From Escherichia phage moskry, in the sequence record MN850651.1: 64,000 nucleotides of DNA, one strand, 5' to 3'. This document shows, piece after piece, positions 15,262 to 19,018 of this stretch (positions within the stretch are counted from its first letter, which is position 1; the number at the start of each line of letters is the position of its first letter). Under the pieces are notes generated by a model. It was not told where the DNA came from and searched no databases. It saw only the letters and a program-made list of their open reading frames with translations. Position numbers and translations under genes: made by a program.

Positions 15262-16260
15262 TTATGATACTAATTCAATCCATGCAGGACGCAGAACATC
15301 TTGCACCATTCTGACTAATTCTTTCTTAACAAGATTCGGATTATCAGATGATGTTAATACAATACCTTCACGAGAAGTTTCTTCCAGAATATCTTGAACA
15401 GTCAATCCCATCACTTTGCCAAAATCTTTTGGCGTTACAGTCCCAATCTTAGAAATCACATTATTAATACGATTTAATGTAACATAACAAGCTAGAACAT
15501 CAAGCAAGTTTTTGTCAGTTTCGGTTAATGGAACCTGAGTTTTAATAGGCTTATCAGACTTTTTCTTTTCACTGAATTTAGAGTTCTTGCACTTAATAGC
15601 TACACGAGTACCGTTTGGCAGCCATTTAGGGAAACAGGGCTTCAGAACATAACCTTCTGCCGTATTATCGCCAATAACATTAGCATCAAATACGCAATTA
15701 TTTGCTTCGACAAGGTCTTCCGATGCCGTGGCGTTATAAGCGGCTAAGACGGAATCAAGGTCATTTGGAATCATGATAAGAGAATCAAATGTTCCACGTC
15801 CAAGCATTGGTGCCATTTTAAAACCGAATTCATTACAGAAATCTTGCATTTCGTAATCGGTCAAATACGTATTATCACCACTTTCTGTATTGATAAGGAT
15901 ATCGAACACGTAAAAATCTTTTTCACCGTAGTCAACACCTTTCTGGATTCCACCACCAGCGAATTCACCGAATACTTGATATGATACGGCTCGAGCTGTG
16001 TACATGAATTCCTGAACGGCTTTAATAGCTTTATCATACTTCTTGAGTATGATTTCATAACCATAAAAATCTTCTGCTGGAAGAATAGGGCCTGTGCGCT
16101 TGGCGCATGTGACGTTGTCACGTTCAATTATTAACGAGAAGTTAGTCCCATGGATTTTCTCACGTGCTACCCAAACACCAGTAGTCAAACCATTAGTGTA
16201 GAGTTTTTCAATAAACTTAGAGTTGTAGTGGTTTTCAAGACTGCTGTATTTCTTAAACAT
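15262..16260 (-). CDS. rnlB: RNA ligase 2 (Rnl2)
   Basis: 332 aa; [20 protein letters not shown] and KIHGTNFS ligase motif I; T4 RnlB 334 aa. Confidence 0.93.
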
Positions 16261-16822: not shown

Positions 16823-16901
16823 AATCAATCCCGTATTATTTGGTTTGTGCCATTATATACATCAATCTCAAGATGTGTTTTGTATGCTTTAAAAACGAAG
16901 A

Positions 16902-16919
16902 AAGGGGCCGAAGCCCCTT
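16902..16919 (-). terminator. Terminator hairpin after hoc
   Basis: Minus sense AAGGGGC-UUCG-GCCCCUU followed by U-rich tract. Confidence 0.7.
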
Positions 16920-16921
16920 GA

Positions 16922-18340
16922 TTATGGATATGTATAGATGATACCAGTTTCCAAAGCAGTTTTATGGATGATGTATCCATTACGTGATTCTTGAACATCA
17001 ACTTCTGGATAATCTTTCATCATCTTCTGAAGAGTGTAACGATGCAGGTAGTATTTACTATCTGGATCTTCAGTTTTCCAATCTTTACCTTCTTCAGTCA
17101 TTTTTTGGATTTCATCCATAACCCACCATCCGCACCAGATGTAAGCTGAAGTACGATGTGGAAGAGGATGAACATAAGGTAATTCACCTTCTGGTTCTGG
17201 AGCAACTTTATCGGTTACCTGAACTTGACCTTCTGCTGTAATAGTTTTGCTATCGTAATCAGTTGCAGTAATAGTTGCAGTAACTTCAATAGTTTGACTT
17301 CCAATAGATGAGGTATCAACGGTATATACATTAGTTGACCCTTCTACAGGAGAAGAATCTTTCTTCCATGAATACTCAATTTGCGCTTCTTCTGGAGCAT
17401 CAGTGACATTAGCGGTAAATGTAGCCGAAGCATCTTGCTGAACGTTAATAGAAGGAGGAGTCAATGTAACCCGTGGATTCATTGTCTTCTTATTAACCGT
17501 TAATGATACTTCATTCGAAGTAACTTCCTTTGCATCATAATCTGTCGCGGTTACTTGGGCTACACATTTAATTCTTTTTACCCCGCTTGTAGTCGGAGTA
17601 TAGCTAAATGTAGAGTTAGTTTCTCCACCAACCTGTGAATCATCTACATACCACTGATACGTAGCAGACGCTCCAACCGGTTGAGAAGCTAAGGCAGCAG
17701 TAAATTGAACTGGGGTTCCAATTACTCCGGCTGAAGGACTATTGGGAGTTACTGCCAACGTAGTTGTCTGTGTCTTTTTATTAACAGTCAGTGACACTTC
17801 ATTAGAAGTAACGCTTAGTGCGTCATAATCTGTTGCGGTTACTTGAGCCACACACTTAATTCTTTTTACCCCGCTTTCGGCAGGAGTGTAATTGAACGTA
17901 GCGTTAGTTGCTTCACCAACAGGAGAATCATCTACATACCATTGATAAGTAGCGTTTGCGCCTGATGGCTGCGAAGCTAAAGCGGCAGTAAATTGAATAG
18001 CTGTTCCTATTACTCCAGCGTCAGGGCTATTAGGAGTTACAGCTAAGGTAGTCGTTTGTGTCTTGTTTTGAACTGTGATAGTTGTAGTAGCTTCTGCTGT
18101 TTCAGCTTCAGCTTCTGGAACTGTATTTGTTGCAACTACTTTAATAGTCTTTTGACCGGCAGGTCCTTTTAGTACATAACTAAAAGTTGCTTCAGCTCCA
18201 TCTTGTGGAACATCATCCACAGACCAAGCATATGTAATAGGTCCATCTCCAGTTTGACCACTGGGTGTAGCAGTAAACTGCTTAGTCTCATCTATAACTC
18301 CAGTAGGTGTTTTAGGAGTTATATCAACTGTAAAAGCCAT
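16922..18340 (-). CDS. hoc: Hoc highly immunogenic outer capsid protein, 4 Ig-like domains
   Basis: 472 aa; Ig-like repeat units; T4 Hoc is 376 aa (3 Ig domains + capsid-binding domain); here one extra 96-aa domain. Confidence 0.9.
   Translation of the reverse strand: MAFTVDITPKTPTGVIDETKQFTATPSGQTGDGPITYAWSVDDVPQDGAEATFSYVLKGPAGQKTIKVVATNTVPEAEAETAEATTTITVQNKTQTTTLAVTPNSPDAGVIGTAIQFTAALASQPSGANATYQWYVDDSPVGEATNATFNYTPAESGVKRIKCVAQVTATDYDALSVTSNEVSLTVNKKTQTTTLAVTPNSPSAGVIGTPVQFTAALASQPVGASATYQWYVDDSQVGGETNSTFSYTPTTSGVKRIKCVAQVTATDYDAKEVTSNEVSLTVNKKTMNPRVTLTPPSINVQQDASATFTANVTDAPEEAQIEYSWKKDSSPVEGSTNVYTVDTSSIGSQTIEVTATITATDYDSKTITAEGQVQVTDKVAPEPEGELPYVHPLPHRTSAYIWCGWWVMDEIQKMTEEGKDWKTEDPDSKYYLHRYTLQKMMKDYPEVDVQESRNGYIIHKTALETGIIYTYP
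17489..18064 (-). repeat. Tandem direct duplication (2 x approx. 288 bp) inside hoc, each encoding one Ig-like domain
   Basis: Protein residues approx. 93-188 and 189-284 are near-identical (KTQTTTLAVTPNSP...VSLTVNK); corresponding DNA segments clearly similar by eye. Confidence 0.85.
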
Positions 18341-18349
18341 AACTTATCC

Positions 18350-19018
18350 TTATTTTAATGTTACGAAAGAAGAATTACGAGTTTCACGAATTAGAACTGA
18401 TCCATCGCGATTAATATAATAAATTAAGCTAAATAATGTTTGGTGAGCAGAAGCATGCACAAAACTAGTTGGGCGAGATTTCCAATCTGGGGTTTCGGCT
18501 ATCCATTGATAAATCCACCAAGGAACAGTAACATATCCTGGGCCTTTGCCTAATTTAATGAGTGTAGGACTAAAATTTTCAGGCAGAACAAATTTTACTT
18601 CTTTATTTACCTCTGGTTCAGGCTCTTTTTCGGATTCAACAATCTGAGTAATTGCTTCTTCGAATTTATCATGGTCGAATTCTTTTTCTTGTTCGACAAC
18701 TTCTAATACTTCAACTTGTTCTGTTGGAGAATCAAACAACAGAATAGCTTCTTCTTTAACTTCTTCGTTGGTGAAATTAACACCGTCCACATCATCTGCG
18801 GCAGTAATTAAATCGGTGATAGATAATCCATCAGTTTCAGGTAATGGTTCATCAGCCAGTGCGTTAAGAGCTTCTTCGATATCAATAACAATATTATCGA
18901 ATGATTTTGTTTTCTTAACACTAATGCCAAATTGTTCCGCGTATTCAAACAGTTTAGCTTTGGCTTCCTTTTTATCAGAAAGAGCACGTAACTCTTCAAT
19001 ATAGTCTTTATCGATCAT
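18350..19018 (-). CDS. inh: Inh, inhibitor of prohead protease
   Basis: 222 aa; C-terminal FVHASAHQTLFSLIYYINRDGSVLIRETRNSSFVTLK; position upstream of hoc as in T4 (Inh 226 aa). Confidence 0.85.
   Translation of the reverse strand: MIDKDYIEELRALSDKKEAKAKLFEYAEQFGISVKKTKSFDNIVIDIEEALNALADEPLPETDGLSITDLITAADDVDGVNFTNEEVKEEAILLFDSPTEQVEVLEVVEQEKEFDHDKFEEAITQIVESEKEPEPEVNKEVKFVLPENFSPTLIKLGKGPGYVTVPWWIYQWIAETPDWKSRPTSFVHASAHQTLFSLIYYINRDGSVLIRETRNSSFVTLK

Follow-up and report, generated by a model that had tools for sequence, protein, structure and literature searches.

Hoc of Escherichia phage moskry is longer than Hoc of T4 (472 versus 376 aa), and the locus raises the question of where the additional residues came from and how long ago they arose. 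The window analysed here is a 64,000-nt stretch of the moskry genome. A first-pass annotation had identified hoc in it, assigned the protein four Ig-like domains compared with three in T4, and attributed the fourth to a recent tandem duplication. The gene and its domain count are confirmed by alignment to T4 Hoc, Pfam, AlphaFold2 (AF2) and Foldseek, and the coordinates given for the open reading frame and for the two repeat copies are exact (Table 1). With regard to origin, we consider it likely that moskry carries an intact T4-type hoc whose two central modules are old paralogues from an array of variable unit number, that this number shifts by unequal crossover, and that genes of T4 length are mostly secondary.

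Table 1. Features of the hoc locus of moskry. Positions are those of the window and residues those of moskry Hoc; unit nucleotides are counted from the 5' end of the 288-nt unit.
Feature	Position	Strand	Description and basis
inh CDS	18350-19018	minus	ORF list
Shine-Dalgarno AAGGA for hoc	18347-18351	minus	overlaps inh stop codon; read from upstream sequence
hoc ORF	16922-18340	minus	472 aa; ORF list, T4 Hoc match, Pfam PKD/Ig matches
Ig-like domain 1	18065-18340	minus	aa 1-92; aligns to T4 Hoc aa 1-92; AF2 all-beta aa 1-91
Unit A (first-position Ig module, extra relative to T4)	17777-18064	minus	aa 93-188; type-A clade; AF2 domain aa 93-187, pLDDT above 90
Crossover interval for an AV110-like deletion	18022-18026 (unit A) paired with 17734-17738 (unit B)	minus	after unit nt 39-42 (interval 39-43)
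Unit B (second-position Ig module)	17489-17776	minus	aa 189-284; orthologous to most of T4 domain 2; type-B clade
Ig-like domain 3 (T4 numbering)	17213-17488	minus	aa 285-376; AF2; Pfam Ig_3/I-set at 289-373
Linker and C-terminal capsid-binding domain	16925-17212	minus	aa 377-472 = T4 aa 281-376; near-identical to T4 C-terminus
Intrinsic terminator hairpin	16902-16919	minus	directly 3' of hoc stop codon; terminator scan

The moskry protein is deposited as QHR76646.1 (MN850651, Mosigvirus), and clustering at 90% identity puts it in a group of 167 proteins, RB30 Hoc among them. It matches T4 Hoc (PDB 5vf3_Z, 376 aa) with an E-value of 7.9e-222 in phmmer, and its computed pI (4.52, compared with 4.74 for T4 Hoc) falls in the range of about 4-5 reported for this acidic protein (Fokine et al. 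2023, PMC10385173). The gene lies in the head-gene region, downstream of inh and upstream of 24.3, 24.2 and rnlB, which is also the annotated order in vB_EQ1, RB18, RB27, JS09 and teqskov, and its flanks are 98-99% identical to those of JS09-like Mosigvirus genomes. The T4 late-promoter motif TATAAATA does not occur in the 300 nt upstream of hoc (18341-18640, minus strand), and a sigma-70 scan returned fewer matches than shuffled sequence. Only 9 nt separate inh from hoc, and the two genes are probably cotranscribed. The terminator hairpin that follows hoc is also annotated in WFbE185, R5505 and G4507.

Moskry Hoc aligns to T4 Hoc in two pieces, residues 1-109 with T4 1-109 and, with few differences, residues 189-472 with T4 93-376, so that unit A is the segment left without a T4 partner. 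The alignment skips this unit only, and the difference in length is exactly one 96-aa unit, as had been proposed. The extra Ig domain is thus a tandem paralogue of T4 domain 2. The Pfam PKD model (PF00801) scores 39.5 bits against a gathering cut-off of 23.5 in two stretches, one per unit, and Ig models (Ig_2, Ig_3) match both units and the next domain. An AlphaFold2 model built with 45 homologues (mean pLDDT 83.8) contains four all-beta, beta-sandwich domains at residues 1-91, 93-187, 189-283 and 285-376, where pLDDT mostly exceeds 90. The C-terminal domain (CTD) that comes after them is alpha/beta and predicted at low confidence. The best PDB matches of this model in Foldseek are strings of four Ig domains (Dscam1 Ig1-4, Sidekick-2 Ig1-4 and ICAM-5 D1-D4, E about 1e-12). 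D342 in domain 3 corresponds to T4 D246.

Tandem Repeats Finder reports a direct repeat within hoc at 17483-18064 (period 288, 2.0 copies, 79% matches, score 726), and a second repeat search of the gene places the copies at 17483-17770 and 17771-18058 with 78% identity. The 96-aa offset is the sole strong internal register of the protein. This repeat is far beyond chance, yet it is diverged: units A and B agree at 224 of 288 nucleotides (77.8%) and at 82 of 96 residues (85%), values too low for the near-identity that had been ascribed to the modules. Of their 64 differences, 43 are at third codon positions, 11 at first and 10 at second, and exact matches in register reach 21 nt at most. The description of the repeat as a recombination hotspot holds on evolutionary time scales, on which unequal crossovers have occurred. 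It probably does not extend to a single phage stock, where identity of 78% with exact matches of at most 21 nt should make the repeat a poor substrate for instability and where we would expect its copy number to stay constant. A separate 12-nt micro-repeat (2.3 copies, 17255-17283) lies inside domain 3, in its 'VTATITATDYD' region. This 28-nt spot is the only repeat_region annotated in the hoc gene of mobillu, and that annotation does not refer to the 288-bp repeat.

The synonymous divergence between the units argues for an old split. In moskry, dS between units A and B is 1.15 and dN is 0.109 (dN/dS 0.095, Nei-Gojobori), and within single genes of nine arrays (moskry and eight others) the A-B dS ranges from 0.84 to 1.27. 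The non-repeat parts of hoc (D1, D3 and CTD) have dS values of 0.05-0.31 between moskry and 11 other T-even alleles, T4 included. Across different arrays, orthologous A units differ by dS of 0.50-0.78 and orthologous B units by 0.33-0.49; for the flanking genes uvsW, inh and rnlB, dS between moskry and a Tequatrovirus is 1.5-2.6. By these distances, the A/B split is several times as old as the divergence among the sampled hoc alleles. Synonymous sites are nearly saturated while the protein is conserved, so both units have been kept by purifying selection.

A recent tandem duplication of a T4-like domain 2 in the moskry lineage would explain an in-frame repeat of exactly one domain, and it would fit the 376-aa Hoc of the close relatives AV110 and JS09. 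We nevertheless regard it as highly improbable. The units differ far more at synonymous sites than the orthologous parts of hoc do (1.15 compared with at most 0.31), they fall in position-specific A and B clades that span two genera, and dozens of genomes have the A-B allele, with the moskry protein itself already deposited. Moreover, single-unit relatives such as AV110 contain no source for unit A, and the AV110 unit is itself an A/B chimera, which makes AV110 a derived form and not the parent. The timing given in the first-pass annotation is therefore refuted, both by dS between the units and by an A-B arrangement that is common to Tequatrovirus and Mosigvirus genomes. Units A and B are ancient paralogues, and moskry hoc is an ordinary, known allele.

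Tandem repeats are also prone to mis-assembly in general, a concern with nothing specific to hoc, and an assembly artefact could in principle have created or expanded the second unit. The probability of this is negligible: with differences at 64 of 288 sites reads place unambiguously, the reading frame is intact, and independent assemblies carry a 1419-bp hoc with 93-98.6% identity to the moskry gene.

The old paralogues are widely distributed. Matches to hoc occur in 662 phage records, with 1419-bp and 1131-bp forms both represented in Tequatrovirus and in Mosigvirus, and a comparison of hoc length across relatives, which had been suggested as a check, finds both the 376-aa and the 472-aa protein. 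Each unit used as a query finds 616 records and about 890 places. An evenly spread sample of 60 records has two places in 21 and four places in 1; extrapolated from this sample, roughly 35-40% of the 616 T-even records would contain two or more units. Protein clusters include Hoc lengths of 376, 472 and 568-570 aa, and 664 aa in FJ1, corresponding to one to four units. The FJ1 protein (MZ170040, hoc at 156-2150) has four 96-aa modules and six Ig domains in total, and UGKSEcP2 (hoc at 234-1946, 570 aa) has three 96-aa modules. Length can differ between genomes whose flanks are about 99% identical to those of moskry, with hoc being 1419 bp in vB_EQ1 and 1131 bp in AV110.

Several records depart from an intact gene. 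Those of T2 (MH751506), T6 (MH550421), ACG-C40 and ECML-134 either lack a hoc annotation or divide the gene between two CDSs, and in T2, T6 and ACG-C40 there are 1-nt indels inside the unit. These broken genes may be either sequencing errors or genuine pseudogenes; hoc is non-essential.

An unrooted neighbour-joining tree of 38 units from 23 hoc genes has two deep clades. The type A clade holds every first-position unit. Second units make up the type B clade, and the terminal units of three- and four-unit genes form a type C subclade; in FJ1 and in UGKSEcP2-type arrays the type C unit is always last. A and B can be told apart at 18 diagnostic sites, which lie between unit nt 96 and 219 except for one at nt 288, and short conversion patches are visible in units of AR1, phiD1, F31 and FJ1. 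Among the best 120 protein clusters the unit orders are A-B, A-C, B-C, A-B-C and A-B-B, and none has a reversed order such as B-A. Single-unit alleles nest inside clade A or clade B and do not constitute a separate outgroup.

The single-unit alleles carry the evidence on the direction of change. Of the 64 sites that distinguish A from B in moskry, AV110 matches A at the initial seven, which span nt 9-39 and are all synonymous, and B at the other 57, and JS09 changes from A to B after the fifth site. By the same sites, RB18, R5505 and ECML-134 switch from A to B between about nt 219 and about nt 231. We determined polarity by scoring 20 single-unit DNA alleles against all first-position and non-first units. 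About 10 of the 20 are clean A-to-B chimeras with a single switch, at points that range from nt ~20 to beyond nt 260, and the 20 include no clean B-to-A chimera. IMGVR_L004 is the one pure-A allele, RB3 and LH2 are the two pure-B alleles, and HY01 is near pure A with an ambiguous 5' end. Another six are complex mosaics: T4 and T2 (both A-B-A), PNJ-6 (B-A-B), RB18, R5505 and Shfl2. Scored in this way, RB18 and R5505 are B-like for the first ~36 nt, then A, then B. At the protein level only residues 48, 51 and 52 are diagnostic among 82 single-unit clusters, and DNA alleles were used for this reason.

A one-sided polarity, A at the 5' end and B at the 3' end, is the product expected from deletion in an A-B tandem, and it favours the array as the ancestral state. 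Both polarities would be expected if single-unit A and B alleles had exchanged segments by equal crossover. The case draws on about 20 alleles that are partly non-independent, and gene conversion and allelic recombination blur their history. AV110 provides the clearest example. Its hoc (376 aa) is moskry hoc minus 288 nt, and when all unequal crossovers within moskry hoc are simulated, the best product corresponds to AV110 hoc with 17 mismatches in 1128 nt, from a crossover in the interval given in Table 1. It is very likely that AV110 hoc is a deletion derivative of an A-B allele. JS09 and AV110 may go back to one common deletion event: A units, including that of vB_EQ1, are polymorphic at the sites that discriminate between the two breakpoints, and for this reason we downgrade the idea of two independent deletions.

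A tree of the non-repeat parts of hoc intersperses one-unit and multi-unit alleles, with groupings such as AV110/vB_EQ1, IMGVR_L002/PP01, T4/RB27, and 101112UKE3/G4507 with FJ1, which indicates that unit number has changed many times. As a general rule, it is probable that alleles of T4 length are secondary products of an array.

The units could alternatively have come together in the opposite direction, with A and B beginning as divergent single-unit alleles that were joined once by out-of-register recombination during co-infection, such that arrays are derived yet old. Pure-A and pure-B single-unit alleles do exist, and their ancestry may never have included a duplication. Among the 80-82 single-unit protein clusters, A and B cores are both frequent (33 A and 47 B by nearest neighbour, 44 A and 30 B by the three residues; mosaicism accounts for the difference between the counts, and we claim no precise ratio). 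Hoc is also clearly swapped between co-circulating phages, and such a join could have been mediated by NK(K)T, a short motif that the domain boundaries share. However, all arrays have one junction and one order, with no B-A array in the 120 clusters, and the orthologous A units of different arrays are already separated by dS of 0.5-0.78. Single-unit chimeras have one polarity only, and four of five A-type single units match B at the final nucleotide of the unit. A single fusion of alleles is unlikely on this evidence, and an array that is ancestral for all sampled hoc alleles is the reading that we infer.

Taken together, the following scheme is likely. The conserved CTD would sit on the centre of the major-capsid hexamer while the N-terminal string of Ig domains projects outward. 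T4 'domain 2' is represented in moskry by two tandem 96-aa paralogues, A then B. Arrays of one to four such units, always ordered A, B, (B'), C, occur in both Tequatrovirus and JS09-like Mosigvirus phages, and moskry has the common A-B form. Copy number would change when adjacent units undergo unequal homologous crossover, and alleles of T4 length would mostly be A-5'/B-3' fusion products, with AV110 as the clearest case. Finally, the whole gene moves between the genera as a cassette. We lean slightly toward the broadest statement of this scheme, in which the three-Ig Hoc of T4 is a secondary fusion product and not the ground state, and hoc is an old, maintained array of one to four units that is reset by crossover and traded between genera. 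If true, it would suggest balancing or niche-dependent selection on the length or valency of the capsid fibre.

Exchange of the gene between genera is apparent when moskry is compared with the Tequatrovirus teqskov (NC_054934). In 300-nt windows, hoc (compared region 16892-18389) is 0.94-0.98 identical between the two phages, whereas the flanks (uvsW, inh, 24.3, 24.2 and rnlB) are 0.57-0.82 identical, and the edges of high identity are sharp and coincide with the gene ends. Because hoc is so much more alike than its surroundings and the edges fall at the ends of the gene, this pattern points to cassette exchange between Mosigvirus and Tequatrovirus. The annotation of the JS09 record gives RB32 as closest for hoc and RB69 as closest for all neighbouring genes.

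T4 Hoc is a monomeric fibre of 180 Å, present at 155 copies per capsid, whose CTD (residues 281-376) binds the centre of gp23* hexamers and whose Ig domains 2 and 3 are reported to attach to E. coli surfaces (PMC10385173). The CTD of moskry is almost invariant with respect to that of T4, which suggests that capsid binding is identical and that moskry Hoc would attach as T4 Hoc does. One more Ig domain would make its fibre about 45 Å longer than the 180 Å of T4 and, judging from the sequence, may supply a second copy of the domain-2 face that binds glycans or the cell surface. In the PNJ-9 variant Hoc, which has two Ig domains, S183, L184 and T185 of domain 2 bind fucose of MUC2 and are required for binding (PMC11853027). 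Moskry has an SLT motif at residues 183-185 in unit A and again at residues 279-281 in unit B, which is a sequence correlate only of the PNJ-9 site.

The moskry and T4 genes have in common their identity, their position at the inh/24.3 locus and the acidic Ig string (T4 Hoc: PDB 5vf3, 8t1x, 8t9r). They differ in that T4 has one domain-2 unit and moskry has two. Unit B is 91% identical to the T4 unit at the DNA level, and the T4 unit is itself a mosaic, A-like at its 5' end and B-type in its body, with a stretch of A sequence at unit nt 247-261. The Hoc proteins of RB30, RB27, PP01, AR1, phiD1, teqskov, vB_EQ1 and F31 (472-474 aa) share the A-B architecture and junction of moskry, and their genes (88-98.6% DNA identity over the whole gene) differ from it by substitutions and small conversion patches only. 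UGKSEcP1/2 (568-570 aa, A-B-C) and FJ1 (four units) draw on the same module family and obey its order rule, but have one or two more units, including a type C unit that is absent from moskry.

That Hoc proteins differ in their number of Ig domains has already been published, with a range from one to ten and the maximum in Serratia phage Muldoon (PMC10385173), and the 472-aa allele is common, deposited and annotated. In PNJ-9 and Muldoon the number of Ig domains varies too, but different domains have been lost or gained. A literature search for the A/B/C unit array or for a derived status of the T4 three-Ig form found no paper, only general statements on Ig number, and these two aspects constitute a modest evolutionary point. 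Of more practical use are the natural near-isogenic pairs, such as AV110, with three Ig domains, and moskry or vB_EQ1, with four, whose flanks are about 99% identical. They are suited to asking if Hoc length or domain-2 valency alters adherence to mucus and cell surfaces or phage clearance. For T4 Hoc as a display and vaccine scaffold, these arrays indicate that nature tolerates two to six Ig domains on one type of capsid-binding domain.

Some Hoc proteins have arrangements of other kinds. P0111 (378 aa, from a Logan contig) retains units A and B and lacks most of domain 3. Its unit B runs into the end of domain 3 at VTATDYD, a motif that the two have in common, through an out-of-register deletion between Ig domains that are not neighbours. 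P0038 (472 aa) and P0118 (567 aa) have unit A followed by far more divergent Ig modules, which unit detection with its threshold of 60% identity does not pick up; types A, B and C consequently do not cover the whole module family. The rnlB gene for RNA ligase 2 (15262-16260, minus strand) is an intact 332-aa reading frame in moskry and two CDSs in the JS09 RefSeq record.

An IMG/VR scan recovered 21 related loci, five of them close relatives (L001-L004 and L013), and was used for outgroup clades only. L005 and L006 (471-472 aa, about 47-49% identical to moskry Hoc) represent a distant Hoc clade with an independent tandem duplication. As in moskry, one Ig module of L006 (471 aa) is repeated in tandem and in frame, and the relatives of L006 are 373-377 or 282 aa long. 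The duplicated module of L006 is D3-like, however, with copies that are 81% identical in protein sequence at a 94-aa offset, in a protein with ~47% identity to moskry Hoc. The module copies in L005 are 53% identical.
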